Below, piece after piece: positions 5,909-38,006 of a stretch of DNA of 64,000 nt (its first letter is position 1; the number at the start of each line of letters is the position of its first letter). The DNA comes from Calditrichales bacterium (GTDB lineage: Bacteria > Calditrichota > Calditrichia > Calditrichales > J004): assembly GCA_965267575.1 (NCBI GenBank), contig OZ254086.1, positions 2,272,001 to 2,336,000 of the forward strand. Reading direction: 5' to 3'. The notes beneath the pieces are model-generated. The model did no database searches, was not told where the DNA came from, and saw only the letters and a list, made by a program, of their open reading frames with translations. The translations under genes were made by a program, and so were the position numbers.

Positions 5909-5929
5909 ATATACATGTGATAGATGCCG

Positions 5930-9809: not shown

Positions 9810-9820
9810 CCGCCTGCTCC

Positions 9821-11483: not shown

Positions 11484-12146
11484 TCAGCGTTTGCGTGCCA
11501 GCGTCAGGCCATCGGCGATGGGCACCAGGCTGAGGTCAATGCGCAGATCGTCTTTCAGCTTCTCATTCAATTGGCGGATAGCGACGGTCTCCGCGTCTTG
11601 CTCACTGTCATCTGCCACGCGCCCGCTGTACAAAACATTGTCTATAGTGATCAGGCCGCCGGGACGGATGAGTTTGAAGCAGGCCTCGTAATAATAGTCA
11701 TAGCGTTCCTTGTCCGCGTCGATAAAGGCAAAGTCAAAGGTCCCCTCATGACCGTCCTGCAATAGCTGCTTCAGGGTCTCTTGCGCGTTACGCAGCTGCA
11801 GGTCGATTTTATGGTCCACGCCGGTTTTCTCCCAGTAGCGTCTGGCAACCGCTGTCCACTCTTCGTTGATGTCACAGCAAATTAGCTTGCCGTCATCGGG
11901 CAGGGCCTGCGCCATGCAGATGGAACTGTAGCCGGTAAAAGTGCCGATCTCGATGGCCTTTTTTGCGCCCATCAAACGGACCAGTAGCGCCATAAACTGG
12001 CCCTGCTCCGGGGCAATCTGCATGCGCGACATTTCATCTTTGGCGGTTTCGGCGCGCAGCTGTTTTAAGGTGTCCGGTTCACGTACGGAGATCCGCGCCA
12101 TGTAATCGTAAATTTCGGCCAGGTTCAATGTGCTGGCGTTTGACAT
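11484..12146 (-). CDS. Class I SAM-dependent O-methyltransferase (CCoAOMT-like)
   Basis: MQIAPEQGQF, IEIGTFTGYS, FDFAFIDADK, IDNVL, PIADGLTL. Confidence 0.93.
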   Translation of the reverse strand: MSNASTLNLAEIYDYMARISVREPDTLKQLRAETAKDEMSRMQIAPEQGQFMALLVRLMGAKKAIEIGTFTGYSSICMAQALPDDGKLICCDINEEWTAVARRYWEKTGVDHKIDLQLRNAQETLKQLLQDGHEGTFDFAFIDADKERYDYYYEACFKLIRPGGLITIDNVLYSGRVADDSEQDAETVAIRQLNEKLKDDLRIDLSLVPIADGLTLARKR

Positions 12147-12156
12147 AAAAAACTCC

Positions 12157-20270: not shown

Positions 20271-20357
20271 GATATACCTCTCTTTATATGGAAATTTTCT
20301 TGTTGCAGACAAATGTAGCGCGGCCGGACAGCCTTCTCATTGATGTATGGTAAGAAC

Positions 20358-20951
20358 CTATTTTCTGAAATTCTGTTGCGCCAGATCCCTGCGGACACGA
20401 CTGAGGCTTTCGGGTGTGATGCCCAGGTAGGAAGCAACCATGGTTTGAGGAACGCGCAGGAGCAGGTCGGGGTACATTTTTACAAATGCCAGGTATCTTT
20501 CTTTGGCCAGAGCGCTTAAAAGGTGGTTAATCCTGTTTTGCAGGTGACGGATGTGGTTGTGCAGCAGCCTGTTATTAAAATCCCTGAACGACGGGATCTT
20601 ATCTTCCAGAAACCTGATAAAGTCCTCGTCTATTAAAACGACCTGCGTCTCTTCCAGGGCCTGTATAAAGTATTGAGACGGTTTATTGAAATAGACGCTT
20701 TCTCTGTCCGAAATAAACCAGTTTTCCGGCGCAAACTGTAAAATGTGTTCTTTGCCTTTGGCGTCAATGGTGTACTCTCTCAGTAGTCCTTTTTCCACAA
20801 AGAAGGTGTGTTTGCAAAATTCATCGCGGCGCAGCAAAAACTCGTCTTTGCCAAAGCGCTTGCGTGTGCAGCTTTCCGTAAGAGAAGCTATCTCATCTTC
20901 ATCAATATTCAGGTTGGAAGTCAGGTAGCCGGTTAAGCTAAAGTTTTTCAT
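20358..20951 (-). CDS. Crp/Fnr-family transcriptional regulator
   Basis: cNMP domain (FVEKGLLR...GKEH) and VPQ.MVASYLGITPESLSR HTH. Confidence 0.93.
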   Translation of the reverse strand: MKNFSLTGYLTSNLNIDEDEIASLTESCTRKRFGKDEFLLRRDEFCKHTFFVEKGLLREYTIDAKGKEHILQFAPENWFISDRESVYFNKPSQYFIQALEETQVVLIDEDFIRFLEDKIPSFRDFNNRLLHNHIRHLQNRINHLLSALAKERYLAFVKMYPDLLLRVPQTMVASYLGITPESLSRVRRDLAQQNFRK

Positions 20952-21153
20952 AGGAAACTATATTACTTAGTCTAAGCGCAATATATGAAAATTTGAGGAT
21001 GGTGAGGATGTATAAGCCGACAATAGGTAGTGGCGTTTACCGGCCGTGCTTGACATGCTGGCCGTTAAGCGCCCGATGATCTTGGGCCGCTAACTTTTCA
21101 TTGAGGTTTATTTTGGTGATGGGCGTTGGGAGGAATAATTACCAGAGGGCTAG

Positions 21154-21768
21154 TTATGGTTCGATGCCTAAAATTAATAGAGGCACAGGGGGGCTGTTTC
21201 TTCCTTGTCGCATTACATTATAAACTTCCCCTTCATAGTATGCGATACCGCTACTCATTTGTTTTTGCATTGTTTTTGTTGGAAGTATTTCTATTCCAAG
21301 GTTTACAACACCACCTGAATAAAACAGCATATGTTTTACAAACAAATCAAAAGCTACAAATGCGTATTTCCCAAATTGTACCTCCACTGCAATTTTCTGT
21401 TTAACAAAATCTGTTTGATTATAGCTATAGATTGGCTCTTTCTCTCCATTTGCAATTAAAAACTCCTTTTGCTCCTTTGCCGACATAGGGATACTTTTTT
21501 CCATTAATTCTCTATTTAAAGTTATATAATAATTGTATCTGCTTTCCGACCACCCGCGTTTATTGAACCCCTCATTAAATGCTTTGTTTAGGTCAACTGG
21601 AGAAAGTAAAGCGTCACCCTTCTTTCTAATTTCTTTACTTATTTTAGTACGAAAATCTTCAGCGTTTATTGACGATATAACTTCTTTTATTTCGTCATAA
21701 AGGCTTTTGTGATGTACAATTAAATATTCCTCGCCATTCAAATGCGAATATTTTTTGGCGATTTTCAT
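21154..21768 (-). CDS. Type II restriction endonuclease, BglII/BstYI family
   Basis: NQTDFVK..IAVEVQFGKY motif; AT-rich; ATGA overlap with the methyltransferase. Confidence 0.88.
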   Translation of the reverse strand: MKIAKKYSHLNGEEYLIVHHKSLYDEIKEVISSINAEDFRTKISKEIRKKGDALLSPVDLNKAFNEGFNKRGWSESRYNYYITLNRELMEKSIPMSAKEQKEFLIANGEKEPIYSYNQTDFVKQKIAVEVQFGKYAFVAFDLFVKHMLFYSGGVVNLGIEILPTKTMQKQMSSGIAYYEGEVYNVMRQGRNSPPVPLLILGIEP

Positions 21769-22733
21769 TTTCTATTTACGCTTTTGTTATCTTGTAAAAG
21801 GCTAAGTTGTTTCCATTCATCGGGTATTTGGGAAACTTTGTCTTTCTTAGAAGGTCTATGAATGGGCTTGTTTATGGGTCTAATTTTTAAGGTTCCATCT
21901 TTAAAACTTTTAATTCTTCGTTTTGCAATTGAACAATACTCTTTTTCCTTTTCGATTCCCAGTGCACTTCGCCCATTTTTTATAGCTGCAATAACCGTAG
22001 ATCCAACACCAGCGTATGGATCAAGTACGAAGCTTCCCTCGTTTGTTAATGCTAGGACACAACGTTCAACTAATTCAATTGGAAATTGGCATGGATGCTC
22101 AGTTTTTTCCGGGTGGTTGGATTTTACGTTTGGAATATTCCATAGCTCTTTTTCCCAATCGTTCGCAATAATTTCCCAAATATCACTAGGGTTTTTTCCT
22201 TTTGGATTTCCAGATAATTGACCTTTTTTTGGACCTTTGAAATGGCGTTTTCCCGGATATTTTGCTGGAACCCGAACGCTGTCAAGATTAAAAATATAGT
22301 CATCACTTTTAGTGAACCAAAGTATCGTTTCGTACCTTCCGCTAAACCTATTACTAGCGTGTAACCCATGACCGAAATGCCAAATTATTCGATTACGCAA
22401 TTTTAGCTTATGCTTTTTAAAAATTTGATAATAATAAATATCAAGTGGAAATATTTCTCCTTTATTCACATAATTTCCAACTTGCCAACATAAACTGCCT
22501 TTATCAGATAATACTCTTACGAGCTCATTAATAACTTCTTCCTGAGTCTCTAGGTAGTTCTCAATACTAGTTTTAATTTCGTACGTTTTGCCGACATTAT
22601 AGGGTGGTGATGTTATAATTAAATCGAACTTTGAATTTGCTATTTTTTTTAGAATTTCCAATGAATCACCGTGAGCAATATTAAATTCAATTGATGAGTT
22701 AACGTAGTTGAATAAGGGCTCTTTTATTTTCAT
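21765..22733 (-). CDS. N4-cytosine/N6-adenine DNA methyltransferase (beta class)
   Basis: DLIITSPPYN (motif IV) precedes HPCQFP and VLDPYAGVGST (motif I). Confidence 0.93.
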   Translation of the reverse strand: MKIKEPLFNYVNSSIEFNIAHGDSLEILKKIANSKFDLIITSPPYNVGKTYEIKTSIENYLETQEEVINELVRVLSDKGSLCWQVGNYVNKGEIFPLDIYYYQIFKKHKLKLRNRIIWHFGHGLHASNRFSGRYETILWFTKSDDYIFNLDSVRVPAKYPGKRHFKGPKKGQLSGNPKGKNPSDIWEIIANDWEKELWNIPNVKSNHPEKTEHPCQFPIELVERCVLALTNEGSFVLDPYAGVGSTVIAAIKNGRSALGIEKEKEYCSIAKRRIKSFKDGTLKIRPINKPIHRPSKKDKVSQIPDEWKQLSLLQDNKSVNRK

Positions 22734-22854
22734 TTCAAGTTCTTATAAAGTGATTAATTAATTTTCGATATTTTAAAACTCGGCTAGGTAGGAAGCAAAA
22801 AAGTGTGCCGTTTTAATTTTGAAAAAGCAGAAACATAAAATCTAAATTAAAAAG

Positions 22855-22927
22855 AGCCATCTGGCGGATTCGAACCGCCGACCTGCTCATTACGAGTGAG
22901 CTGCTCTACCAGCTGAGCTAAGATGGC
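22855..22927 (-). tRNA. tRNA-Thr(CGT), CCA not encoded
   Basis: Minus strand GCCATCT acceptor stem, TAGCTCAGCTGGTAGAGC D-arm, anticodon loop CT-CGT-AA, GGTTCGAATCC T-arm; 73 nt. Confidence 0.96.
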
Positions 22928-22945
22928 TTAAAAAACGAGGTTTTA

Positions 22946-22974
22946 AATTTAAAGGCTTAAATCGATTGGTGCAA
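22946..22974 (-). promoter_or_regulatory. Sigma70-type promoter of tRNA-Thr
   Basis: Minus strand TTGCAC-17 nt-TAAATT. Confidence 0.6.
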
Positions 22975-22990
22975 GAGCGGCTTTTCTTTT

Positions 22991-23386
22991 TTACCCCTTA
23001 TCCCCATTCTTGCGCTCGTCGATCAGGCGGTCGGCCAGGTGACGGGCCTTTTCGCGCTGCGCCGGGTCAATATTGCTTTTGATGTGGGCGCGCCGTTTCT
23101 GCTGCTCCATCAGGCGCCGGGCCAGCTCCTCTTCGTGGGGAAAATAGTAAACCGTGTTGCCGGGACGCGGAGCCAGGTTGCGCTCCATCCAGTCGTAGAA
23201 AATATCCAGGTCCAGCTCGTCGAAATGGCTCTCCTCGTCAATTTGCTCCAGACGCCGCACCAGCATCTCCTCCTGGGGAAACACAAAGCGCGCGCCGCCA
23301 AACCGTCCGGCTTTATCCTGCAGGTTGTCGTACCACAAAAGCAGTACACGGGCATCTTCGCGGGAGAGTTTAAAATCTATCAACAT
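22991..23386 (-). CDS. Hypothetical protein with an internal duplication
   Basis: AGAGGG RBS; two W....FP.EE.L.RRL units. Confidence 0.7.
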   Translation of the reverse strand: MLIDFKLSREDARVLLLWYDNLQDKAGRFGGARFVFPQEEMLVRRLEQIDEESHFDELDLDIFYDWMERNLAPRPGNTVYYFPHEEELARRLMEQQKRRAHIKSNIDPAQREKARHLADRLIDERKNGDKG

Positions 23387-23461
23387 AGCGGACCCCTCTG
23401 GTCAAATAAAACGCTTATTCCGCAAAGTATTATCTGCACCTTGTCCCATCATTGACGCAGG

Positions 23462-23776
23462 TCAACCTTCCTCGCGCTCGCCGATTTCACGCAGGTAGTC
23501 GTAGGTGTAAATGCCCGTCGTATGGCGATCACTGAATGTGAAGCGGATGGCGTAACGCCCGATCGGTTCATGGCCGGTAAAGATCACGTTGGTGGGATCG
23601 CTTTTCAGCACCCTGAAGGGGTTTTTGTTGCTCTCCTGTTTTTCGCGCTCCTCGCGGCAGGTGGCACAGGGACAGGCGGCACGGGTTTTGTCGGCAAAAT
23701 AGAGCATGTTCACGCCATCATCCCAGCGGATGGCAAAAACAAAATCGCTTATGTGTTGAATATCGATTGGTTTCAT
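23462..23776 (-). CDS. DUF971 (gamma-butyrobetaine hydroxylase N-terminal-like) protein
   Basis: I.WDDG, R.ACPCATC, PIGRYAI...FSD.HTTGIYTYDYL. Confidence 0.9.
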   Translation of the reverse strand: MKPIDIQHISDFVFAIRWDDGVNMLYFADKTRAACPCATCREEREKQESNKNPFRVLKSDPTNVIFTGHEPIGRYAIRFTFSDRHTTGIYTYDYLREIGEREEG

Positions 23777-23788
23777 TTATTGTCCTTA

Positions 23789-24121
23789 AAGTCTCGTAGT
23801 CTTGTGGTCCTGAAGTCTTGATGTCTTAAGTCTTGCCCCAAACCCTGTCATTTCGAATCCGGCGGCTGCCGGATGAGAAATCTGGGATCGTGCTAACTCC
23901 CGGATCTCTCACCGCTTCGCGGATTCGAGATGACAACAACCAGCAAGATCTCGTTGTGGCAAGACGATGCCAACCGGGATGACAACCCCAGAAACTGTCA
24001 TTTCGAACGAACGTGAGAAATCCGGGAGCCAACCGCTGCCCGGGACTCTCCGGCGGTTCGTCGTGTTAAGGGTAGTGCTCACGCCCAGATCTCTCACCGC
24101 TAACGCGGATTCGAGATGACA
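23789..24121 (-). repeat. Composite intergenic repeat: TGTCAT..ATGACA units (23846-23935, 23996-24121) and 8-mer CAAGACNN tandem (23789-23835)
   Basis: Inverted homolog of 928-1137, including the ttcgaaatgaca-tttctggg-tgtcatcccgg junction. Confidence 0.9.
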
Positions 24122-25400: not shown

Positions 25401-25579
25401 GAGGTCGTGAAGTCGTTGGTCTTGGAGTCATGACGTCTTCATCTTTTTGATCATAATCGTACTAGCGCTACCAAATTGTCATTCACGCGCAGGCGGGAAT
25501 CCAGGAAAAGCGAATCTGACAATGTCGCCTATAATCCCCGGCTAAAGCGCCATGGATCCCCGTTTTCGCGAGGATGACA
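25401..25579 (-). repeat. Composite repeat upstream of pepT: dRS3-like doublet (25477-25579), 6-mer tandem, 8-mer tandem (25401-25441)
   Basis: Minus strand tgtcatcctcgcgaaaacggggatcc...ggattcccgcctgcgcgtgaatgaca, gtacgattatgatcaa, gaagacgt catgactc caagacca acgacttc acgacctc. Confidence 0.85.
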
Positions 25580-26738: not shown

Positions 26739-27177
26739 AAGTCTTGTAGTCCGGAAGTCCTGAGGTCAGGAAGTCTTGAAGTTCCCGGGCTCATTATACT
26801 CGTAACGGCGTTTAGCGAATGCGGTCTCCGTTACGCCGTAACACCAACCACGATAAAAGCATCGGGACAGGCCGGGATGAAATAAAGGCCCTGTCACCCG
26901 GGCCGCGTTGCCAAGCCGGCTGATTTGTCATTCCCGCGGATGCGGGAATCCACCGGAGGGGGCTTTTGGGTCGGATGGTTGCTATTCCCGGCAAAGGGCG
27001 TGATGGATTCCCACTTTCGTGGGAATGACACCTAGGTGCCGCATCGGCAGATCGCGGTGTGGAAAAAACACCAACCGGGATGACGCAAAGGCCCTGTCAC
27101 CCCGGCCTTAGCGCCGGGGTCCCTGCCCGCGAAGGCACGCTCACCCTGAATGTCATTCCCGTGAAAAGGGGAATCCA
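26739..27177 (-). repeat. Composite repeat upstream of dusB: 8-mer tandem (26739-26783), 6-mer, 190-bp element (26841-27030), further TGTCAC/TGTCAT half units
   Basis: Read directly; 26841-27030 aligns end to end with 40365-40554. Confidence 0.88.
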
Positions 27178-27184
27178 TTAAGTT

Positions 27185-28183
27185 TTACTGAAACGAAACC
27201 TGCAAATTAAACAACACCCGGTGATGATCTATCTCGGTGTTGTCCAGATCCAGCACGTAGTTGGCCTGGAATTCGGTTACCGCGGTGGGCCACAGGTTAT
27301 AGCCCAGCACGACCCAGTTTGTTTCCGAGCCGCGGTCATTATCGTAGGTTTCATAGCGCAGCAGAAGCTGGTTTTGCGGGTTGAGCATGTATCCGCCCGT
27401 AACATAAAATCCTGACGGCTGCGGACTGAAATCGCCCGGGCCCAGCAATGAGCCGCGCAGGTATTCGGCAGCAAAAAGCCAGTTGATACCCTGGTAGCGT
27501 ATATCCGCGCCAAACAGCTCGCGCTCGCCGTTAAAGGTCAGTCCGTCCACCGCTGCGGCATTATCGTCGCTGAAGCCGAAGTTAATGCCGGCCTCAACAT
27601 TGTTGCCGTCTTCACGCACGGGCAGCCAGGTAAGCCGGCCCACATAAAGATAGGCATTATTGTCGTTGCCGTTGGCCGCCGTTCGGTTGCCGTTAAAGGC
27701 GCCGACGCGCAATTGCAATTCTTCCGCCGCAGGCCAGAACTCAAGCATCACACCGGTTTGAAAGCCCGGCCGGAGTGCGTTTACAATATTGGAGCGGTTA
27801 ACAAAGTCGATGGCATCGGCCCGAATAAGAAATTCCTTGCTGAACGGCGCTTTAAAAACGCCGGCATGTACCCGAAAACGGTTGCGCTTAAGCCAATACA
27901 TGATGCGTGCTTCCTGCAGAGTGCTTGCGCCTACGGCGTTGGCCTGCAGGCGGTAGGCAAAATCCCCCGGCAGGCTGCCATGAACGATAAGCCGCGCGTT
28001 GCCCAGGCTAAAACCATTCACGCCCGGCACAATACGTTCATTCTGAAAATCACCCACGGCCTGGATCATCACGCCCACGTTAACGGTGGCGGCACTTTGA
28101 ATTTTGGGCACTTCCTGGCCGTACAACCCGAAAAACAGCGCAAGCAGCCAGACAATCGAAAACAGTTGTTTATTTTTTAACAT
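27185..28183 (-). CDS. Porin, OprO/OprP-like outer-membrane beta-barrel
   Basis: Signal peptide; F.L..AR...G, G.FK.PFS.E, GAFNGN, RL.W.P, AAEY, GFYV..GY, C-terminal Q.SF. Confidence 0.8.
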   Translation of the reverse strand: MLKNKQLFSIVWLLALFFGLYGQEVPKIQSAATVNVGVMIQAVGDFQNERIVPGVNGFSLGNARLIVHGSLPGDFAYRLQANAVGASTLQEARIMYWLKRNRFRVHAGVFKAPFSKEFLIRADAIDFVNRSNIVNALRPGFQTGVMLEFWPAAEELQLRVGAFNGNRTAANGNDNNAYLYVGRLTWLPVREDGNNVEAGINFGFSDDNAAAVDGLTFNGERELFGADIRYQGINWLFAAEYLRGSLLGPGDFSPQPSGFYVTGGYMLNPQNQLLLRYETYDNDRGSETNWVVLGYNLWPTAVTEFQANYVLDLDNTEIDHHRVLFNLQVSFQ

Positions 28184-28291
28184 TTTACCAACCTTCCCGG
28201 GATTACCCTTTGTTTTTAAAAATAACTATTTTTTAAGGTGCGTTTGCTTGTTAATATTTCCCACGTTTTTAATGAAGGAGTACCATCCCCG

Positions 28292-29389
28292 ATGGAAAAT
28301 AACGAAAATCTGAATGGCGATAAAATTCTTGATATGCTGGATAGCGCGCAGGGCCTGTACGACCTTACGCGGGAAATGAATAAACTGAAACGCGTGGCCG
28401 CGGATCGCAGCGCCGATCCCGTGGAGCGCCAGGAAGCGTATGAAGATATCATCGATTCCGAAGTGGGCGATACAAGTTTTGTGCGGGCCCGCAATATCGA
28501 ACGTGAAAGCAGCCTGCGCCAGATCTTTTTCAAATTTGAAGGAAACAATCCCACCGGCACACAAAAAGACAGGATTGCTTTTGCCCAGGCTTTGGACGCG
28601 CTGCGCCGCGATTACGATTGCCTCACTATGGCCACCTGCGGCAATTATGGCGCCGCCTGCGCTTTCGCCGTTTCCCTCGCCGGTTTGCGCTGCCAGATAT
28701 TTATTCCGGAGCAGTTTCACACCCGCCGCGTGAAGGAGATGGAGCAGTTTGGCGCCGAGATCATTCGCGTGCAGGGCGATTACGAAACGGCCGTGCGGAT
28801 GTCGCAGGAGCATGCCGCCAAAAACGAGGTGTATGATGCCAACCCCGGCGGCGCAAATACCATGCTGCAACTGCGCGCCTATGGTGAGATAGCCTACGAA
28901 ATCTACGACGAATTGCGCGACGCTCCTGCGGCCGTGGCCGTCCCCGTTTCCAACGGCACTACGCTGGCCGGGGTGTACAAGGGCTTTCTCAGCTTGTACC
29001 GCCGCGGAAAGACCAGCCGCATGCCGCGCTTTATCGCCGGTTCCAGCTGGAACAAGAATCCCATTGTGCAGGCCGTGCTGAAAAACCTGGATACCTGTGA
29101 AGATCTGGTGCCCGAACGCATCCGCGAAACCGAGGTGAACGAACCGCTGATAAACTGGCACAGCATCGACGGCGACCAGGCTTTATGGGCCGTGCGCGAA
29201 AGTAACGGCTGGGCCGGGCATGCCAGTGATAAAAACCTGCTGGCCTGGGCCCGTAAGCTGCGCGAAAAAGAAGGGCTGCACGTTTTGCCGGCGTCAACAG
29301 CGGGGCTGCACGCCCTGCTGGCGCAGCATCAAAAAGAACCGCTGAATAACGACCGCTACGTGGTTGTGCTAACCGGAAGGAGGGACTGA
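28292..29389 (+). CDS. PLP-dependent fold-type II enzyme (threonine synthase-like)
   Basis: KFEG.NPTGTQKDR (PLP Lys), ATCGNYGAA, VPVSNGTT.AG, EGL.VLPAS.AG, VVVLTGR; AAGGAG RBS. Confidence 0.85.
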   Translation: MENNENLNGDKILDMLDSAQGLYDLTREMNKLKRVAADRSADPVERQEAYEDIIDSEVGDTSFVRARNIERESSLRQIFFKFEGNNPTGTQKDRIAFAQALDALRRDYDCLTMATCGNYGAACAFAVSLAGLRCQIFIPEQFHTRRVKEMEQFGAEIIRVQGDYETAVRMSQEHAAKNEVYDANPGGANTMLQLRAYGEIAYEIYDELRDAPAAVAVPVSNGTTLAGVYKGFLSLYRRGKTSRMPRFIAGSSWNKNPIVQAVLKNLDTCEDLVPERIRETEVNEPLINWHSIDGDQALWAVRESNGWAGHASDKNLLAWARKLREKEGLHVLPASTAGLHALLAQHQKEPLNNDRYVVVLTGRRD

Positions 29390-29390
29390 T

Positions 29391-30458
29391 ATGGCCCTGG
29401 ATGGAAAGGCCATTGTTTATTGTGACGCAGCGTTTAACACACCCAACGGAAAAACCGCCCACGGCCTGGTGCGCTTTACCGAGCGCTACGATGTTCTGGC
29501 CGTGATTGACCAGCGCTATGCCGGGCAGGACGCGGGTGAGGTGTTGGATGGCAAAAGTCGCGACATTCCGGTGGTGGACAACCTGGAGGCCGCACTGAAA
29601 GGACCGGGCAAAGGCGCCAAATTTTTTGTGATCGGTATAGCGCCGGATGGCGGGCGTCTGAGCGTAGCGGCGCGTGAAACGGTTAAAGAGGCCATCGGCA
29701 TCGGGTTGAATATCGATTGCGGTCTGCATGATTTTCTGACCGAAGACCCTGTGATAAGCACCCTGGCCCGGGAAAAGAAAATCCAGATCCGCGATGTGCG
29801 CAAGCCGCCGGAAAGATCGGAGCTGCACTTTTTTACCGGACGCATCGAAGAGGTGAAAGCGCTCAAAATTGCCATGCTGGGCACCGATTCCGCCGTGGGT
29901 AAACGCACCAGCGCCTGGATTCTGGTGCACGCGCTACGCAAGCTGGACATCAAAACAGAGTTGATTGGCACCGGGCAGACCGCCTGGATGCAGGGCGCCA
30001 AATACGGCGTGGTGATGGACAGCCTGATAAATGATTTTGTAAGCGGAGAGATTGAGCATGCCGTGGTCAGTGCCTGGGACAATGAAAAGCCGCAGGTGAT
30101 CGTCATCGAAGGGCAGGGCAGCATCATGAACCCGGCTTATCCGGGCGGCTTTGAGATACTTGCCGCCGGCCGGCCCGATCTGATCTTTCTGCAGCACGCG
30201 CCCATGCGTGAAGATTATGACGGTTTCCCCGGCTACAGGCTGCATCCCCTGCCGCAGCAAATCGCCGTGCTGGAAATGCTTTCCGGTAAAAAAGTAGCGG
30301 CGATTACATTGAACCATGAAGAGATGAAAAAGACGGAGATAGACAGCTATTGCAGCGCGATGAGCCGCACCCTGGGTCTGCCGGTGTACGATCCGCTGTT
30401 TCACGGAGGCGGCGAGCTGGCCCGGCTGATCAAGGAGGAATATCTTTTGACAGAATAG
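29391..30458 (+). CDS. DUF1611 domain protein (DgcN-like; Rossmann-like plus P-loop domain)
   Basis: GKTAHGLVR, IGIAPDGG, GLHDFL, GTDSAVGKRT, TGQT, VSGEIE, IEGQGS..NPAY, LQHAP. Confidence 0.88.
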   Translation: MALDGKAIVYCDAAFNTPNGKTAHGLVRFTERYDVLAVIDQRYAGQDAGEVLDGKSRDIPVVDNLEAALKGPGKGAKFFVIGIAPDGGRLSVAARETVKEAIGIGLNIDCGLHDFLTEDPVISTLAREKKIQIRDVRKPPERSELHFFTGRIEEVKALKIAMLGTDSAVGKRTSAWILVHALRKLDIKTELIGTGQTAWMQGAKYGVVMDSLINDFVSGEIEHAVVSAWDNEKPQVIVIEGQGSIMNPAYPGGFEILAAGRPDLIFLQHAPMREDYDGFPGYRLHPLPQQIAVLEMLSGKKVAAITLNHEEMKKTEIDSYCSAMSRTLGLPVYDPLFHGGGELARLIKEEYLLTE

Positions 30459-30574
30459 ACAGAGCGTACGGGATAGAAGAGGAAAAAAAGTTCATTCGGC
30501 CAGCTTAACAGGCCGGTTCAATGAATCTGTAGATTTTTATAATTCAATCCGGGCAATCCTGTAATCCTGTCCAA
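30447..30574. repeat. Inverted arms of 8-9-bp GACAGGATT-like units around an internal hairpin
   Basis: ttgacagaatagacag...gggat / aatcc..aatcctgtaatcctgtccaa; similar element at 38096-38165. Confidence 0.65.
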
Positions 30575-30607
30575 TTTTTCTGGAACCCGGACAAAACGGA
30601 GAAGATA

Positions 30608-32920
30608 ATGGCACAATTGGAGCAGAACGCGCTGGTCTGGCAGCGTCTGGATGTCGGCCCGGTTACAATCGAAAAAAAGCGGATAAAGGCGCGCTATGCC
30701 GTCACCACGGAGAAAGGCACGGAAGAGACGTTTCTCTCCTTCAGCTACGAAGAAGAGGTGTTTGACCCGGCAACTCCGGCGGACTCCAACCTGGCGATGA
30801 TGATTGCTGTGCAGCCTGCGCTCAACTATGGTCTGTTTGCAAAAGAAATCGTTTTTCATGGGTTGTTTGATGCCCAGGACCGGCGCTTTATCCGCGATAT
30901 GACCGAGAATACCTCGCGTGAGATTTATGTAAACAAATTGCTGGCGCCGAATGTTTTTCTTACCGGTGAAATGGCAAAGCTGAAACCGGAAAAACGTGAT
31001 CGCTACACGCTTGCCAACCTGCGCTTTGAAAAAGATCCCAAAACCAACCGCGCGCCATGGAAAATGTGGAACGGCGATCCGTCGCGCTACGCGGTGCTCT
31101 CCAGTGGCGGTAAGGACAGCCTGCTGACATACGGCCTGCTCAACGAGGCCGGGCTGGAAACACACCCGCTTTTTGTCAACGAGTCCGGGCGGCACTGGTT
31201 TACAGCGCTCAATTCCTACCGCCATTTCAGCGAATCCATCGCCCACACCGGCCGCGTCTGGACCGATTGCGACCGGCTGTTCAATTTTATGCTGCGCCAG
31301 ATGCCCTTTATCCGCAAAGACTACGCCGATGTGCGCGCCGATATGTACCCGATCCGTTTGTGGACGGTGGCTGTGTTCCTTTTTGCCGTGTTGCCTGTGG
31401 TGCGTCGCCGCGGCATCGGGCGCCTGCTCATCGGAGATGAATACGACACCACCCTGCGCGAAACCACCCACGGCATCCGCCATTACGCCGGCTTGTTTGA
31501 CCAAAGCCGCTTTTTTGACGAGCAGTTGTCGCGCTATTTTTTGGCGAAAGGCTGGGCCATTGCCCAGTTTTCGGTGTTGCGGCCTCTTTCCGAACTGCTG
31601 ATAATGAAGATTCTCTCCAACCGCTACCCGCAGCTTCAGGCCCAACAGGTCTCCTGCCATGCCGCGCACAAAGGCGAAGACGGCCGCATCTATCCTTGCG
31701 GCAAATGTGAAAAGTGCCGGCGCATTGTCGGAATGCTGCAGGCCATCGGCGGCGATCCCAAAAACTGCGGCTACAATGACCGCCAGATAGAAGAGTGCCT
31801 GGAGGCGCTGATGAAGGGCGGCATCCACCAGGAAGAAGAAGGCTATTTGCAGATGATGCACATGTTGCAGCAGAAGAAAAAAATTCCGCTGCAGCCGGCG
31901 TTTCGCAGCCACCCGGAGGTGCTTATGCTGCGTTTCGATCGTGAACACGCCATGCCGGAATATATCCCGGCCGACCTGCGCCATCAGATCTACCCGCTCT
32001 TGCTTGAAGAAGCGCAGGGGGCATTGCGCAAACGCGGCAAATCGTGGCAGCCGTTCGATTTGTGGCATTCCGAGGAGATGCGCAAAGCCTACGCTTTTGA
32101 CGCGCTGCCCTCAGGTTCAGCGTCGGAGCATCCCGGGGATGACGGCTACCTGTGGGGCGAGATGTCCTGGCCCGAGGCGGAGGAGTACCTAAAGCAAGTG
32201 GATGTGGCACTGCTGCCGGTGGGTGCCATCGAACAGCACGGCCCGCATCTGCCGCTGGATGTGGATGCCTATGATGCCGATTACCTGGCCCGCCAGGTGG
32301 CCGCCGCCTGCAGCCCGCCAAGGCCGCTGGTACTGCCGCTGATTGCCTACGGGGTATCCTACCACCATGATGAATTCAAAGGCACATTGAGCGTAACCAA
32401 CGAAACGCTCGCCCGCATGGTCTACGAGATCGGTATGAGTGTTGCCCGCAACGGCATCAAAAAACTGCTGATACTGAACGGCCACGGCGGCAACGACGCC
32501 ACACTCAATTTCGCCGCGCAAATGATCAACCGCGACGCCCATATTTTTGTCGGCGTCGATTCCGGCGAAACCAGCGATGCCGATATCTACGAAATGGTGG
32601 AGACACCCAACGATGTACACGCCGGTGAATTTGAAACCAGCACCACGCTGGCACTGCGGCCGCACCTGGTAAAAATGGACAAAGCCAAAAGCGCCGTTCC
32701 CGAATTTTCCAGCCGCTACCTGGATTACACCTCGCGCCGCGGCGTCTCCTGGCATGCCCATACCAAAAAGATCTCCGAAGACGGCACCATGGGCGACCCG
32801 ACAAAAGCTTCCGCCGAAAAAGGCCGGCGCATGTGGAAAATAATGATCGCTCACCTGGTGGCTTTTGTAGAAGAACTTAAGCGGCTTTCGCTGGATGAGA
32901 TACACCAGAAGAAGTATTGA
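30608..32920 (+). CDS. Fusion protein: MurL/QueC-like PP-loop ATP pyrophosphatase domain plus creatininase-family amidohydrolase
   Basis: N-terminal SSGGKDSL, FSVLRPLSEL, VSC...CGKCEKC; C-terminal LPVGAIEQHGPHLPL..D, NGHGGN, HAGEFETS, GDPT.AS.EKG. Confidence 0.85.
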   Translation: MAQLEQNALVWQRLDVGPVTIEKKRIKARYAVTTEKGTEETFLSFSYEEEVFDPATPADSNLAMMIAVQPALNYGLFAKEIVFHGLFDAQDRRFIRDMTENTSREIYVNKLLAPNVFLTGEMAKLKPEKRDRYTLANLRFEKDPKTNRAPWKMWNGDPSRYAVLSSGGKDSLLTYGLLNEAGLETHPLFVNESGRHWFTALNSYRHFSESIAHTGRVWTDCDRLFNFMLRQMPFIRKDYADVRADMYPIRLWTVAVFLFAVLPVVRRRGIGRLLIGDEYDTTLRETTHGIRHYAGLFDQSRFFDEQLSRYFLAKGWAIAQFSVLRPLSELLIMKILSNRYPQLQAQQVSCHAAHKGEDGRIYPCGKCEKCRRIVGMLQAIGGDPKNCGYNDRQIEECLEALMKGGIHQEEEGYLQMMHMLQQKKKIPLQPAFRSHPEVLMLRFDREHAMPEYIPADLRHQIYPLLLEEAQGALRKRGKSWQPFDLWHSEEMRKAYAFDALPSGSASEHPGDDGYLWGEMSWPEAEEYLKQVDVALLPVGAIEQHGPHLPLDVDAYDADYLARQVAAACSPPRPLVLPLIAYGVSYHHDEFKGTLSVTNETLARMVYEIGMSVARNGIKKLLILNGHGGNDATLNFAAQMINRDAHIFVGVDSGETSDADIYEMVETPNDVHAGEFETSTTLALRPHLVKMDKAKSAVPEFSSRYLDYTSRRGVSWHAHTKKISEDGTMGDPTKASAEKGRRMWKIMIAHLVAFVEELKRLSLDEIHQKKY

Positions 32921-33282
32921 GAATTAGGAATTCGGAATGAGTGGTTCATTTTTGTCATATCGAATCCATACAGCGGTGAGAGATCCCGGATCGTGCGTAA
33001 TCCTGGATTTCTCACATCCGTTGCAATTACAGGTTGGCTGTCATCCCCGCGAAGGCGGGGGTCCATGGCGCTTTAACCGGGGATCATGGGCGGCATTTTC
33101 AAATTCACTTTTTCTGGATTCCCGTTTCCACAGGAATGACAATTGAAGGGAAGGGGTTTGGGGATGGGTTCCTGCCCGTGCAGAGAAAGATTAGGATAAT
33201 GAGAATGAAAAAGACCCTTCGGTATCAATACAAATGACCTCAAGACTTCCGGACCACAAAACATCAAGACCACGAGACTTCG
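32921..33282 (+). repeat. Composite intergenic repeat: 7-mer, TGTCAT unit (32953-33031), dRS3-like doublet (33039-33141), GGGAAGGGG arm (33147-33170), 6-mer, 8-mer tandem (33233-33282)
   Basis: Read directly; same order as 890-1137. Confidence 0.88.
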
Positions 33283-33286
33283 CACA

Positions 33287-34354
33287 ATGAAAATAAAACA
33301 GACCGAACACTTCCTCGTCGCGATGGAGCTGAGCGAACCCTACACCATCGCCTATGAAACGGTAAGCCACGCCGAAAATATTTTTCTGCGGCTGGAGACG
33401 GATGGCGGTTTGGTCGGTTGGGGCTGTGCCGCGCCGGACCCGGGTGTGACCGGTGAAACGGCGGCCGGTGTGCAAAAAGCGTTGAACGAGATTGTTGTGC
33501 CCGCTCTCAAAGGGATGGATGCTTCACGGATTACATTGCTGCTGGCGCAGTTGCAGAAGCAGCTCGGCGGACAGCCCTCTGTGCTGGCGGCCGTGGACAT
33601 GGCGCTTTATGATCTGCTGGGTAAAAAAGCGCAGCTTCCGCTATGGCGATTGTTGGGCGGCTATCGCGACAGCATTGCCACAAGCGTCACCATCGGTATC
33701 CTGGATACGGAAAACACGGTGCGTCATGCCCGGGATTTTATCGACCGCGGTTTTGTATGCCTGAAAATAAAGGGTGGCAAGAATGTTGATGAAGACATCG
33801 AAAGGCTGATCAAAACCCGTGAAGCAATCGGCGATAGCATTGAGCTGCGTTTTGACGCCAACCAGGGCTACAGCCTGGAGCAGGCCCAGCGTTTTGTAGC
33901 AGAGACGCGGCAATGTAACCTGGAGCTTCTGGAGCAGCCAACGCCGCGTGAACAGCTTGACCTGCTTGGCAACGTGAGCCGCACCGTGCCCCTGCCCGTT
34001 ATGGCCGATGAAAGCCTGATGAACCTGCGCGACGCCTTCAGTCTGGCCCGCGCCGAGCTGGCTGATATGATCAATATAAAGCTGATGAAAGTGGGTGGCA
34101 TTAATGAGGCTTTGTCGGTAAATGCCGTGGCCCGTGCCGCGCGCCTGGAGGCGATGGTAGGTTGTATGGATGAGTCGGCGCTGGCCATTGCCGCCGGACT
34201 GCATTTTGCGCTAGCACGGCCCAACGTCTTCTACGCCGACCTGGACGGACACCTTGACCTGATTGATGATCCCTGCAAAGATATGTTGCGTCTTGAAAAA
34301 GGTATTCTTTATCCGCCCGACGCCCCCGGCCTGGGCATAGAGCCGCGTTTCTAG
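33287..34354 (+). CDS. Enolase-superfamily dipeptide epimerase / N-acyl amino acid racemase (AEE/DgcA-like)
   Basis: LKIKGG (KxK), DANQG, EQP, ADES, NIKLMKVGG, GCMDES, DLDGH (DxD). Confidence 0.92.
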   Translation: MKIKQTEHFLVAMELSEPYTIAYETVSHAENIFLRLETDGGLVGWGCAAPDPGVTGETAAGVQKALNEIVVPALKGMDASRITLLLAQLQKQLGGQPSVLAAVDMALYDLLGKKAQLPLWRLLGGYRDSIATSVTIGILDTENTVRHARDFIDRGFVCLKIKGGKNVDEDIERLIKTREAIGDSIELRFDANQGYSLEQAQRFVAETRQCNLELLEQPTPREQLDLLGNVSRTVPLPVMADESLMNLRDAFSLARAELADMINIKLMKVGGINEALSVNAVARAARLEAMVGCMDESALAIAAGLHFALARPNVFYADLDGHLDLIDDPCKDMLRLEKGILYPPDAPGLGIEPRF

Positions 34355-34431
34355 AAAGCCCCTAAAAGTTTGTATTTGTTGGTTTTATGGTCTATCTTTT
34401 GGCCATTTAACAACCCAAAAGAGGCCCGGCT

Positions 34432-36825
34432 ATGAAACGGACAGGCTTTGCTCTTCTTGCTTTGCTGATCACCCTAAGCTGCAAAAATATTGAACCCGGC
34501 GTATACGATACGTTCGACGTGTTGCGCCTGAAATCGGGGCAATTGAATTCTGTCTACGTGCCTGATCTATTTTACGCGCCCGACTATGTGCTGGATTTTG
34601 AAGCACACGAGCATATCGATCTGATCTATGACGGCAAGGAGCAGCTTCTGGCCAAACCCGATAGCGGTTTTTCCGGGCTCACGTCCATTCGCTTTGAATA
34701 TGCCGGCAACTCTTACGATATCCCTGTTCGCGTAATGCAATCTATGAGCCACACCTTTACCTACAAGGCCGGCAAAGGCTTTCAAAATGCCCGCGTAATT
34801 GGTCAATTTAACAGCTGGAACCGCAATTCTGAGCCTATGATCGATCCTGATGGTGATGGTGTTTATGAGATCACGTATGCCCTTGATCCCGGCCGCTACG
34901 AGTACAAGTTTTATATTAATGACGGCGAAGAGGTGCTGGATCCGTCCAATTCTGTGCGGGTGCCCAATCCTTTTGGGGCTTACAATAATATTCTCGTTGT
35001 TCCCGATCCCGATGCCGGTGCAACCGTCTGGCACATGAACGGCCACATCAATTTGCGCGATACTTTAAAGCTGAACTTTATTTCCGAAAACCCGCGACAG
35101 GAGCTTACTGATCCACCACAGGTTCTGGTTTTCCTGGATAATAACCGCCTTGAAAAAGAAACGGTCAGACACGACAAAAACGCTTTTCAAGCGGCCATTC
35201 CCATAAACAGGCTGCAAGGGCAGCAACGCGTTTTAGTAGGCGTTTTCAAAAACGGAACAGCGCGTCCCTACTACCGGATAGATCTTGTGGATGGTCAGCC
35301 CGCCGGCGGCAGCAAGAAAGCCTTCAGCTGGCGCGACGCAATCATTTATTCCCTTTTTATCGATCGTTTTTATGACGGCGATCCGTCAAATACCAAAAAA
35401 GTAGATAACCCCGATCTGCATCCCAAAGCGAATTATCATGGCGGCGACCTGGCCGGCGTACTGGCAAAGCTGGAAGAAGGTTACTTCAGCGATCTGGGCG
35501 TGAATGTTCTGTGGATATCGCCGGTCAATCAGAATCCCCGGGAAGCCTATCGTGAATTTCCCGAGCCGAATCGCCTCTTTACCGGCTACCATGGCTATTG
35601 GCCCATCGAGCCGGACAAGGTAGATGAGCGCTTTGGCGATTTGGGATTGTTGCAAAAAGTTGTAGAAACCGCGCATGGTCAAAATATTAGAGTCATTCTT
35701 GATTTTGTAAGTAACCATGTACACGAAAAGCACCCCTGGTTCAAAGAGCATCCCGATTGGTTTGGTGAGCTCAATTTGCCGGATGGTCGCAAAAATATCC
35801 GCTTTTGGGATGAATACCGACTGACCACATGGTTCGATACGTTCCTGCCCAGTTTTGATTTTCCCGGCTCGCCGCGGGCGCTGGAGGCCGTAACCGACAA
35901 CGCCATCTGGTGGATGGAGAAAACGGGTGTCGACGGCTTTCGTCAGGACGCTGTGAAGCATGTACCCAATAAGTTCTGGCGCACGCTTACCCGCAAGATC
36001 AAGGAAGAAATTGAGATCCCTGAAAGCAAAAGCACCTATCAAATCGGTGAAACGTTCGGCGGCTATGAGCTGATCAGCAGCTATGTGAAAAACGGCCAGC
36101 TTGACGCGCAGTTTAACTTCAACCTCTTTGAAACCGCCAATTATACTTTTCTGCATCCCGACGGCCATTTCAAAGATATCAACAAGGAGATGTTCAGCAC
36201 TTTTAATATTTACGGGCGCAATCACCTGATGGGCAATCTGATGGACAGCCACGACAAGGTGCGTTTTGCCGCCTACGCAGACGGTGACCTGGCGCTGGAC
36301 AGCGAGAACGCCGTAGAAGTGGGCTTTACCGATCCGCCGCAAATAGACAATCCCGATACCTACAAACTGGCGCGGGTTTACCTGGCGTACATGCTTACTA
36401 TCCCTGGTATGCCGGTTATATATTACGGCGATGAGATTCTGATGACCGGCGCCGCAGACCCCGACAACCGCCGCCCGATGCGCTTTGGGGAACAGCTCAC
36501 CGAAGCTGAAAGGAAAATGAAGGAAGAGGTAAGCCGTATGATCCGCCTGCGCCGCGATAATTCCGCACTGCGCTACGGCGATTTTAAGGCCGTATTTGTG
36601 GACAAAGATATTTACGCATACCTGCGCGAGGACATGCGACAGCGCGTATTGGTTTTATTGAACAAAGGCAAAACGGACCGAACGTTGCAACTTAAATTCC
36701 CGCCCGCCCTGCATGTGACCAGCGTTTTGCCGCTGTATAACAATAAGCGCTTTGTCCTGTTCGAAGATGCGCTGGATGTAGATGCACCGGCTCTCAGCGC
36801 GCAGGTGTTTTTGTTGAAGAATTGA
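34432..36825 (+). CDS. GH13 alpha-amylase family lipoprotein with a CBM48-like domain
   Basis: Lipobox TLSC; G.FNSWN...YEYKF (CBM48); IDRFYDGD, GGDLAG, YHGYW, DFVSNH, GFRQDAVKH, GE, SHD, PVIYYGDE. Confidence 0.93.
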   Translation: MKRTGFALLALLITLSCKNIEPGVYDTFDVLRLKSGQLNSVYVPDLFYAPDYVLDFEAHEHIDLIYDGKEQLLAKPDSGFSGLTSIRFEYAGNSYDIPVRVMQSMSHTFTYKAGKGFQNARVIGQFNSWNRNSEPMIDPDGDGVYEITYALDPGRYEYKFYINDGEEVLDPSNSVRVPNPFGAYNNILVVPDPDAGATVWHMNGHINLRDTLKLNFISENPRQELTDPPQVLVFLDNNRLEKETVRHDKNAFQAAIPINRLQGQQRVLVGVFKNGTARPYYRIDLVDGQPAGGSKKAFSWRDAIIYSLFIDRFYDGDPSNTKKVDNPDLHPKANYHGGDLAGVLAKLEEGYFSDLGVNVLWISPVNQNPREAYREFPEPNRLFTGYHGYWPIEPDKVDERFGDLGLLQKVVETAHGQNIRVILDFVSNHVHEKHPWFKEHPDWFGELNLPDGRKNIRFWDEYRLTTWFDTFLPSFDFPGSPRALEAVTDNAIWWMEKTGVDGFRQDAVKHVPNKFWRTLTRKIKEEIEIPESKSTYQIGETFGGYELISSYVKNGQLDAQFNFNLFETANYTFLHPDGHFKDINKEMFSTFNIYGRNHLMGNLMDSHDKVRFAAYADGDLALDSENAVEVGFTDPPQIDNPDTYKLARVYLAYMLTIPGMPVIYYGDEILMTGAADPDNRRPMRFGEQLTEAERKMKEEVSRMIRLRRDNSALRYGDFKAVFVDKDIYAYLREDMRQRVLVLLNKGKTDRTLQLKFPPALHVTSVLPLYNNKRFVLFEDALDVDAPALSAQVFLLKN

Positions 36826-37040: not shown

Positions 37041-38006
37041 CTAACCGAGCAGTTTATCAAATAGCTCTTCTTCTATTGTTATTTCTTTGAAAATCCTGCT
37101 GACTTCTTTTGCGCCAATGCGCTGGAAATCATCGCGGCGCGGGGCAATCAGCAGCCCGCCCATATCCACGGCGCCCGGACTGATCAGATAAGTGCCCTCA
37201 TGGTAGAACGAAGGCCGGTGTTCTCGTCTGGGATAAAACAACACCGTCCACCTCTGTCCGTTGTGTGTCACCAGCAGGTTAAGCCGCGGTTCATCCGTTC
37301 CCTCCATCAGCTCCGCAAAACGCACGACCATTTTTTGTACTTCAGCGGCCAGCGCCGCGCCGTCCGTGGATGTGAACAAGATGTTGGCCGCGAAATAATC
37401 CTTTAATCTGCTTACCGTGACGCCATAGCGTTGATCAATCGTTTTCAGATTGCTTTCTTGCTTTAGATGCTGGAAAACAGGCAGCCTGTAACGCAGCCCG
37501 GCCTGAAAATGCAGATGCTCCGGCGTTGAAGCACCCGCGCGCGGACCGTTGTACAACACCACGAAATCCTCACCCAACGCTTTGGCCAATGACAGCATGG
37601 CCGGTTCGCGCTCGCTGATGGCCTGCGGCACGTGCCTTTGGTGTACCACAGTCAAATGCTTTTCCAGGATGGGATAAGGGTTGCATAGCACATAGAAATC
37701 ATCAAACACAAGACCGCGCTGTTCCGGGGGCAGATTTTCGCGGCATAAAATACAGTCACGCTTTGCCACTGATTCCGGGTCAACTTTTGCCGTTGTGCTT
37801 TTCATGCGTTTTGGATTGCATTGCAGCAGAAGGTCATAATCACCGAGTTCGAGACGCTTGATTTCAGAAAGCGCCAGCCCGCCGAGGTTTTCGCGCAGCA
37901 TCGGCCAGCTCTGTTCCTGTTGACGCATCAACGCATCTACCTGCACGGCAAGCGGCGTTTCCGCAAACGTGTTCAAATCGTTGTTTTTTAAAATGAAATC
38001 AGCCAT
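37041..38006 (-). CDS. DUF4922 protein (HIT-like GDP-glucose/Ap4A phosphorylase fold)
   Basis: Q.NP.R..ST.AK, C.LC.ENLP, L.NPYPI...HLT, YNGP.AGAS.P.HLHFQ, ISPGAVDMGG. Confidence 0.85.
   Translation of the reverse strand: MADFILKNNDLNTFAETPLAVQVDALMRQQEQSWPMLRENLGGLALSEIKRLELGDYDLLLQCNPKRMKSTTAKVDPESVAKRDCILCRENLPPEQRGLVFDDFYVLCNPYPILEKHLTVVHQRHVPQAISEREPAMLSLAKALGEDFVVLYNGPRAGASTPEHLHFQAGLRYRLPVFQHLKQESNLKTIDQRYGVTVSRLKDYFAANILFTSTDGAALAAEVQKMVVRFAELMEGTDEPRLNLLVTHNGQRWTVLFYPRREHRPSFYHEGTYLISPGAVDMGGLLIAPRRDDFQRIGAKEVSRIFKEITIEEELFDKLLG

Follow-up and report, generated by a model that had tools for sequence, protein, structure and literature searches.

Do the four adjacent genes at positions 28292–34354 of a stretch of Calditrichales DNA serve one pathway, and what kind of molecule would such a pathway handle? 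The stretch (hereafter the window) comprises 64,000 nucleotides (nt) of contig OZ254086.1 in the assembly GCA_965267575.1 (positions 2,272,001–2,336,000). The four genes were co-oriented and intact, and encoded a pyridoxal phosphate (PLP) enzyme, a DUF1611 protein, a fusion protein of 770 amino acids (aa) in which an adenosine triphosphate (ATP) domain is followed by an amidohydrolase domain, and an enolase-type epimerase. The five catalytic modules were inherited as one unit. We give about even chances to the reading that the four genes constitute one horizontally mobile operon for a single undescribed small-molecule pathway, with the biosynthetic direction favoured. It would probably spend ATP on the assembly and stereo-inversion of a small molecule that resembles an amino acid or a dipeptide and is not acidic. 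A first-pass annotation, made from the letters of the window, had described four co-oriented genes, the first two separated by 1 nt, with intact catalytic motifs. This description was borne out by the open reading frames (ORFs) and by residues that were invariant or nearly so among orthologues. The five-domain composition that it had proposed also proved to be real in Pfam, NCBIfam and fold comparisons.

Conservation and modularity of the operon

Relatives of the fusion protein numbered at least 2918 at an expectation value (E) of 1e-3 or below among the 8000 candidates scored, and relatives labelled as coming from many phyla showed about 55–60% identity. In a collection of species-representative genomes, 416 stretches contained a relative of the fusion gene, and 80 loci were kept for analysis. 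All four genes were found in the same order and on the same strand in 67 of these 80 loci, under 17 phylum labels, and the identity of the cassette across these labels was 55–70%. When the window proteins were searched against the 80 loci by tblastn, the PLP gene was detected in 73, the DUF1611 gene in 74, and the epimerase gene in 74. The median gap elsewhere was 2 nt between the PLP and DUF1611 genes and 5 nt between the fusion and epimerase genes. In six of the 13 incomplete loci (L008, L019, L027, L036, L038, and L069), the upstream gene or genes were missing at or near the end of a contig. Locus L049 gave no PLP match, or one that failed the coverage filter, although there was space upstream, and L070 and L083 had no epimerase although there was space downstream. 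The co-occurrence of the four genes is far beyond chance, and the earlier supposition that the four families occur together in other genomes was thus upheld. Strong selection must act on whatever this cassette makes or processes, given that it is shared by organisms under 17 phylum labels, and the cassette provides a defined target for pathway discovery.

The operon was also found to be modular. Four loci of the Desulfobacterales type (L010, L013, L015, and L017) had the PLP gene immediately upstream of the fusion gene but neither a DUF1611 gene nor an epimerase gene. Furthermore, a diverged epimerase–DUF1611 pair (38–42% identity) was present elsewhere in three of the four genomes that had the PLP–fusion core alone. 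From these core-only loci and the separate pairs it follows that the PLP enzyme and the ATP-domain/amidohydrolase fusion are the core, and that DUF1611 and the epimerase form a separable module. One separate pair (L111, G041:C1:3751000-3768000, positions 1708–9911) was accompanied by Opp-type permeases, a solute-binding fragment, an Amidohydro_3 protein, and an M20 peptidase. Its epimerase possessed Lys at the position of Glu24 of the window enzyme and Asp-Val at the position of Asp295-Glu296. This cluster looks like one for peptide or D-amino-acid utilisation, which is a catabolic function.

In addition, the domains were joined in more than one way. A natural fusion of DUF1611 with a PP-loop domain (P0124, 855 aa) was found, and fusions of the PP-loop and creatininase domains were found down to 30–34% identity (P0151 and P0157). 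These alternative fusions tie together DUF1611, the ATP domain and the hydrolase. Stand-alone forms of the ATP domain, with 460–520 aa, also occur. An archaeal homologue of this domain, named by NCBI as belonging to Thermoplasmatota (P0142, L110:2379-3917, 512 aa) stood alone outside the operon, beside PAS, SpoIIAA-like and GNAT genes. At the single locus L010, the neighbour of the fusion gene encoded a 749-aa protein (10369–12618, minus strand) in which a histone-deacetylase-like domain and a GNAT acetyltransferase are joined, conceivably an acylation/deacylation pair of non-orthologous origin.

The ATP domain of the fusion protein

Residues 1–500 of the fusion protein matched no Pfam family, and an SGGKDS PP-loop was located at residues 165–171. 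The residues S166-G-G-K169 of the PP-loop and the four cysteines C350, C364, C367, and C370 were kept in 81 of 81 orthologues. Searches of PDB sequences and profiles with the ATP domain returned motif-level PP-loop matches only, with E of 0.07 or weaker, and the Pfam QueC model PF06508 gave 11 bits (E 0.29) against a gathering score of 22. The AlphaFold model of the ATP half, which was built on 22 relatives, had a predicted local distance difference test score (pLDDT) of 91.6. The top Foldseek matches of this model were QueC (2pg3 and 3bl5), Cap9 (9nto_B), and QatC (9y01_B), with E from 3e-5 to 5e-4. For residues 158–384, VIA-align gave Z of 13.1 to Cap9 9nto_B and 12.7 to QueC 3bl5_A, and the next structural families among the representatives compared had Z of 8.8 or lower. 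Because both Foldseek and VIA-align ranked QueC and Cap9 first, the ATP domain is judged from its modelled structure to be a QueC-fold PP-loop enzyme with extra parts of its own.

Like QueC, the Cap9 of the type IV cyclic oligonucleotide-based antiphage signalling system (CBASS), and QatC, the window domain possessed the PP-loop fold, the SGGxDS motif, and the four-Cys site. QueC and Cap9 adenylate a carboxylate and then form an amide. It was different from these enzymes in its additional N-terminal subdomain of 156 residues, its helical C-terminal region, and its fusion to an amidohydrolase, and 7-deazaguanine genes were not near the window operon. The N-terminal subdomain (residues 1–156), when modelled alone, reached a pLDDT of 91.6, but its best structural matches, which were RNase H-like and ASKHA-like topologies, had a Z of only 5.2 and gave no clear relative. 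The helical region (residues 385–500) fell partly inside the alignments to TtuA, TilS, and NAD synthetase, with Z of 8.8 or lower. The ATP domain would represent an unnamed QueC/MurL-like family of adenylating enzymes, without a Pfam model in the copy searched, that occurs in two alternative fusions.

The first-pass annotation had called this half MurL-like, and this label holds only in a distant, superfamily sense. The NCBIfam MurL model NF041275 matched residues 299–373 only, in the region of the Cys cluster, with 18.6 bits (E 5e-4), where the cut-off is 700. An intermediate protein (P0249, 457 aa) matched the ATP domain with E of 3.5e-24 and the MurL model with 37.9 bits (E 7e-10). Judged from these comparisons, the link to MurL, which is likewise ATP-dependent, is real but remote, while the nearest solved folds were those of QueC and Cap9. 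MurL itself is not fused to a hydrolase, and the window genome contains the glutamate racemase MurI. Moreover, mur genes did not recur beside the operon in the 80 loci, although no search was aimed at MurD2.

Members of the creatininase family hydrolyse the five-membered ring of creatinine. The fusion could accordingly be imagined as a MurL-type, ATP-driven epimerase, in which the PP-loop domain would activate an N-acyl amino acid by adenylation of its C-terminal carboxylate, the adenylate would cyclise to an oxazolone-like five-membered ring and racemise in that form, and the creatininase domain would open the ring stereoselectively. The transitive link to MurL through P0249 is consistent with this idea, and so is the fusion of a PP-loop domain with a cyclic-amide hydrolase family, which holds down to 30% identity. 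In addition, MurL has been proposed to adenylate an alpha-carboxylate, according to the available part of the source (PMC8788868). However, the operon would then have no need of its separate enolase epimerase, MurL works without a hydrolase partner, and QueC and Cap9 form amides and carry out no epimerisation. The oxazolone chemistry is purely our conjecture, and the whole proposal was considered improbable.

The creatininase domain of the fusion protein

The creatininase domain was clearly recognised by PF02633, with 247.5 bits over residues 518–754 against a gathering score of 31.3, and creatininases of the PDB matched it with E from 1e-16 to 1e-18. The residues E542, H544, D553, H626, H671, and E676 were kept in 81 of 81 orthologues and are predicted to be the metal ligands. 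The domain remained under all equivalog cut-offs: MftE (TIGR03964, 149.8 against 172 bits), creatininase (TIGR04448, 109 against 235 bits), IolN (74 against 245 bits), and ArfB (30 against 180 bits). Compared with these members of the creatininase family, whose His, Asp, and Glu residues it shares, the window-type domain was different in that it was always fused to or adjoining a QueC-like enzyme. The layout of a PP-loop synthetase with an amide hydrolase is the same as that of amidotransferases such as the NAD and GMP synthetases, a comparison which is our own.

Since MftE, a peptidyl-dipeptidase, was the best NCBIfam match of this domain, an MftE-like peptidase working with a QueC-like ligase might tailor a ribosomal peptide or the terminus of a protein. 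Cap9 and QatC, the nearest folds, conjugate onto proteins, as far as the available parts of the sources state, which would suit such a role. Nevertheless, a conserved small ORF was not found (small-ORF families occurred in at most 7 of the 80 loci), partners of the radical S-adenosylmethionine or RRE type were not present, and the presence of a PLP enzyme together with a dipeptide-type epimerase suggests that the pathway handles free small molecules. Tailoring of this kind is therefore regarded as very unlikely.

The PLP enzyme

The first enzyme of the operon matched the Pfam family PALP with 180 bits. It passed the NCBIfam equivalog model NF004996 (PRK06381), which carries the name "threonine synthase", with 418.6 bits against a cut-off of 266, but it missed the thrC model TIGR00260 (102.9 bits against 167.1). 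Its best PDB relatives were threonine synthases, with E of about 1e-23, and the PLP lysine, Lys110 in the motif NPTGTQKDR, was kept in 71 of 71 orthologues. The likeness to threonine synthase and threonine-synthase-like proteins thus lies in the fold type II PLP domain and its lysine motif. In contrast, the threonine-synthase motifs STGNT and RxEGQKT, which concern the substrate, were replaced in the alignment to threonine synthases. A canonical thrC was located elsewhere in the same genome (C1:672968-673954, 268.3 bits with TIGR00260).

NF004996 was above its cut-off in exactly 6 of 41 genomes. These were the genomes with the fusion (the window genome and the relatives G004, G012, G015, G021, and G040), and the matches lay on the same contigs, beside the fusion gene. 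None of the 14 control genomes had a match above the cut-off. The query of the ESM Atlas with the PLP enzyme gave returns that were confined to its own clusters named "threonine synthase". Because every match above the cut-off in the genomes searched was a neighbour of the fusion gene, the name of the family is doubtful. On these sequence comparisons, the NF004996 family belongs to the operon, and "threonine synthase" is probably an over-annotation, which makes the naming a probable annotation error.

The reading as a true housekeeping threonine synthase was rejected on the missed TIGR00260 cut-off, the separate thrC, and the restriction of NF004996 to fusion-bearing genomes. The canonical activities that the first-pass annotation had named as counting against its reading, true threonine synthase and creatinine hydrolysis, were likewise not indicated by the TIGR00260 and TIGR04448 scores. 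The pass of NF004996 would also suit the view that a threonine synthase, a creatininase, and an Ala-Glu epimerase are unrelated canonical genes that happen to stand side by side. This view is scarcely credible: the gene order was kept in most loci as described above, NF004996 passed solely where the fusion was present while the true thrC lay elsewhere, and the creatininase equivalog fell far short of its cut-off.

The DUF1611 protein and the epimerase

The DUF1611 protein showed the two-domain architecture of DgcN, with 90 bits to PF17396 (DUF1611_N) and 205 bits to PF07755 (DUF1611_C). Its P-loop GTDSAVGKRT was intact, and GK(R)T was kept in 71–72 of 72 orthologues. The best PDB matches were 2g0t, 7xrj, and 2obn, with E of 9e-31 for 7xrj. 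The structure 7xrj is DgcN, a D-glutamate acetyltransferase, according to the part of the source available (10.1101/2024.10.14.618325). The protein remained below the DgcN cut-off of NF041892, with 155.4 against 480 bits. The prediction of a complex between the DUF1611 protein and the PP-loop domain gave a score of 0.00, a verdict in neither direction.

The epimerase was closest to dipeptide epimerases, its best PDB relatives being the Enterococcus faecalis enzyme 3jva, YkfB of Bacillus subtilis (1jpm/1tkk), and the Methylococcus capsulatus enzyme 3rit (E 2e-69 to 9e-65). The complete catalytic set of this group was found, that is, two catalytic lysines, three metal ligands, and a D-x-D motif. 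In the alignment with YkfB, K160/K162 corresponded to K160/K162, K265 to K268, D190/E216/D241 to D191/E219/D244, and D318/D320 to D321/D323, and all eight residues of the window enzyme were kept in 69 of 69 orthologues. The KxK motif, the second lysine, the metal ligands, and the D-x-D motif are thus shared with the dipeptide epimerases. However, the pocket was different. At the position of Arg24 of YkfB, the orthologues had Glu (62 of 69, including the window enzyme), Gln (4), Asp (2), or Gly (1), and the pair D295-E296 was kept in 69 of 69 orthologues. Furthermore, the enzyme was below every NCBIfam equivalog cut-off: DgcA (NF042940, 162.3 against 400 bits) and the L-Ala-D/L-Glu epimerases (NF041118, 235.9 against 500 bits; NF011708, 107.6 against 343 bits). 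We take Arg24 of YkfB to bind the Glu side chain and the D-x-D motif to clamp the N-terminal ammonium of the dipeptide, and on that reading the substrate would have a free ammonium group and would be non-acidic. The catalytic lysines of dipeptide epimerases, but not the roles of Arg24 and D-x-D, were confirmed by the part of the literature source available (10.1101/2022.03.03.481873). Ala-Glu and D-Glu are unlikely substrates in view of the aligned sequences, because Glu replaces Arg24 and the Asp-Glu pair is invariant.

Recycling of muropeptides (L-Ala-D-Glu) or an alternative supply of D-Glu for peptidoglycan, as with YkfB/YcjG or MurD2/MurL, had been among the suggestions of the first-pass annotation. 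The presence of 1jpm/1tkk among the best relatives and the faint MurL match would agree with it. It was contradicted by the acidic pocket just described and by the failure at all Ala-Glu epimerase cut-offs. In addition, the genome has MurI (266.6 bits against a cut-off of 146.65), and mur, amidase, and LD-carboxypeptidase genes were not recurrent beside the operon. The idea was rejected on the presence of MurI and the acidic epimerase pocket, and we see only a very slight chance that it holds.

Comparison with the DgcN–DgcA route

The operon had also been compared with the dgc genes of D-glutamate catabolism, and this comparison stood in its general form. As in the DgcN–DgcA route, a DUF1611 protein and an enolase-family enzyme occur together in one gene cluster, and the natural analogy is that an amino group is first converted into an amide and C-alpha is then inverted. 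On the other hand, both window proteins were far under the DgcN and DgcA cut-offs, the fusion gene stands between the DUF1611 and epimerase genes, and three further parts occur in the window operon, namely the PLP enzyme, the QueC-like domain that uses ATP, and the creatininase domain. Moreover, the acidic pocket of the window epimerase suggests that its substrate is not Glu. The two stereo-inversion chemistries, the acylation by the DUF1611 protein and the deacylation by the creatininase domain that the first-pass annotation had put forward are conjectural.

The operon might accordingly encode an expanded dgc-like route of catabolism or salvage, for a D-amino acid or a D-residue peptide from sediment necromass. 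In such a route the DUF1611 protein would N-acylate, the enolase-type enzyme would racemise, the creatininase domain would deacylate, the PLP enzyme would eliminate or replace, and the ATP domain would drive an unfavourable step. This is the main rival to the biosynthetic reading, less probable than it but a serious one. It was in agreement with the match to DgcN (7xrj), with the independent DUF1611–epimerase pairs in peptide-uptake and amidohydrolase settings, and with the hosts, which were mostly sediment bacteria. The flanking genes spoke against it. At the loci, 138 nearest flanking ORFs were collected, 133 of at most 800 aa were searched against Pfam, and 83 had a Pfam family; ATP-binding cassette (ABC), solute-binding or peptide-uptake components were found in 0 of the 133. 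Furthermore, the DgcN and DgcA cut-offs were missed widely, the kept D-x-D motif, presumably a clamp for a free ammonium group, fits poorly to an N-acetyl substrate, the expense of ATP is unusual for such catabolism, and the PLP–fusion core was found without the DUF1611–epimerase pair.

Proposed pathway

In the biosynthetic reading of the operon, the PLP enzyme would carry out a beta- or gamma-replacement that yields an amino acid outside the proteinogenic set, non-acidic and probably basic. The DUF1611 protein would acylate or ligate the amino group, and its intact P-loop would bind acyl-coenzyme A or ATP. The QueC-like domain would adenylate a carboxylate and couple it to an amine, which would give an amide, peptide, or lactam bond. 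The fused amidohydrolase would cleave a neighbouring amide, and might thus either unmask an amine or ammonia nucleophile, like the hydrolase half of an amidotransferase, or strip a protecting acyl group. The epimerase would then invert C-alpha at the carboxy-terminal residue of a dipeptide-like product, and the product might be handled by DUF2179 membrane proteins in connection with cation or osmotic stress. Biosynthesis was somewhat favoured over catabolism because of the cost in ATP and because no uptake genes were found beside the operon.

Several points weigh against this reading. Fold type II PLP enzymes include deaminases as well. To our knowledge, the only characterised pair of a DUF1611 protein and an enolase-family enzyme, DgcN and DgcA, is catabolic. 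A sequence of steps in which the amidohydrolase depends on DUF1611 cannot hold everywhere, because the four core-only loci have no adjacent DUF1611 and epimerase genes. For the presumed binding of the Glu side chain by Arg24 of YkfB and for the presumed ammonium clamp of the D-x-D motif, confirmation was not found in the accessible literature. Finally, the links to neighbouring genes were seen in a minority of loci (DUF2179 in 16–19 of 80 and Mg2+ channels in 13 of 80) and not in this window.

A more specific proposal may be offered as a speculation, although it is rather unlikely as a whole. The fusion would be a new amidotransferase-like enzyme, whose creatininase half frees an amine or ammonia and whose QueC-like half joins it to the adenylated carboxylate. 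The operon would then make a protease-resistant cationic dipeptide or amino-acid amide with a D-residue, and it would be exchanged among sediment phyla for magnesium, cation, or osmotic homeostasis.

The pathway had been thought to be undescribed, and this view held: no description of the operon was found in the searchable full-text literature, a coverage that extends neither to supplements nor to subscription journals. In a survey of the QueC family from 2026 (PMC13329287), the terms creatininase, MurL, epimerase, and DUF1611 were all absent. If the product were identified, it would provide a new route to amide bonds and D-residues, and it might reveal a small molecule for life in saline sediments.

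Probable horizontal spread of the operon

The ATP domain of the fusion was present in 5 of 40 related genomes, with 53–56% identity, which was no closer than in other phyla. The GC content of the operon was 55.9%, compared with 49.6% for the genome (standard deviation of 3.4% in 6.1-kb windows), which corresponds to the 99th percentile. The FastTree phylogeny of 81 fusion proteins under 17 phylum labels required 28 changes of label, whereas 16 would be the minimum, and the window fusion grouped with two Calditrichota rows with 97% local support. The patchy occurrence among relatives, the high GC of the operon, and the label changes of the tree together suggest that the operon spread by repeated horizontal transfer. 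The hosts included the cultured Desulfosarcina variabilis, D. alkanivorans, and strain NaphS2. Elsewhere in the window, the blocks at 20001–24000 had a GC content of 42–45%.

Gene layout and the repeat spacer

The features of the operon are listed in Table 1. An AAGGAG box preceded the in-frame ATG at 28292, and this codon, rather than the GTG at 28238, is most likely the start of the PLP gene.

Table 1. Coordinates of the genes, domains and spacer of the operon in the window.
Feature	Position	Strand	Remarks
Threonine-synthase-like PLP enzyme, fold type II	28292..29389	+	365 aa from ATG; longest ORF from GTG 28238; PALP
DUF1611 protein, DgcN-like (Rossmann-like N domain and P-loop C domain)	29391..30458	+	PF17396 and PF07755
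Fusion gene, whole	30608..32920	+	770 aa
Fusion protein, N-terminal alpha/beta subdomain, residues 1–156	30608..31075	+	Assigned to no family; AlphaFold2 model
Fusion protein, QueC/Cap9-like PP-loop ATP pyrophosphatase core (predicted), residues 158–384	31079..31759	+	SGGKDS and four-Cys cluster; structure alignment
Fusion protein, helical region (residues 385–500) and linker	31760..32107	+	Confident model
Fusion protein, creatininase-family metallo-amidohydrolase domain, residues 518–754	32159..32869	+	PF02633
Spacer of short dispersed repeats, 366 nt, specific to this genome	32921..33286	.	Between the fusion and epimerase genes
Enolase-superfamily (MLE subgroup) dipeptide-epimerase-like enzyme, acidic pocket	33287..34354	+	MR_MLE_N and MR_MLE_C

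The gap between the fusion and epimerase genes was unusually long in this genome compared with the other loci (median of 5 nt, n = 74). Pieces of the spacer matched 32 other places in the 4.73-Mb genome. The best other copy was located at 25474–25579 of the window, between PepT and DusB, with 83% identity over 106 nt, and the repeat mosaic includes a CCCCGCGAAGGCGGGG hairpin-like core. Because the repeat spacer splits the two genes, the epimerase gene may be on its own transcript in this genome.

The Rfam scan of positions 27000–35500 of the window gave zero families at the gathering score, and thus no riboswitch clue, and the scan of 22 of the 80 loci likewise gave zero. The counts in a promoter and terminator scan of the operon did not exceed the expectation from shuffled sequences. 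A sigma-54 consensus, with one mismatch allowed, was found in 9 of 73 upstream regions compared with 3 of 73 on the reverse strand, and it was not found in the window; this result was too weak and was not used.

Neighbouring genes

Among the 133 nearest flanking ORFs, DUF2179 membrane proteins were the products of 16, all downstream of the operon, and transporters or channels for inorganic cations of 7 (three Na_Ca_ex, and MgtE, CorA, Na_H, and MscS). Four GroEL and three polyamine-type enzymes were also present. Antisense shadow ORFs that arose from crude calling in GC-rich loci (families 4, 8, 9, and 14) were ignored. When representatives were searched against the 80 loci by tblastn, YitT/DUF2179 was found in 10 loci and DUF5698/DUF2179 in 9. 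CorA (9 loci) and MgtE (5 loci) together accounted for 13 distinct loci under several phylum labels, and GroEL was found in 7 loci and Hsp20 in 4. The DUF2179, cation, and chaperonin neighbours are hints to the function.

In the window itself, the genes upstream of the operon (PepT, DusB, and a porin) and downstream of it (an alpha-amylase, a DUF4922 protein, and a GDPD protein) have other functions, and they did not recur beside the operon elsewhere, save for one porin match. The alpha-amylase (34432–36825) has 797 aa and carries a CBM48/AMPK1_CBM module, and the DUF4922 protein (37041–38006) showed a weak Ap4A-phosphorylase-like match. A glycogen phosphorylase was found near the operon in three other loci.

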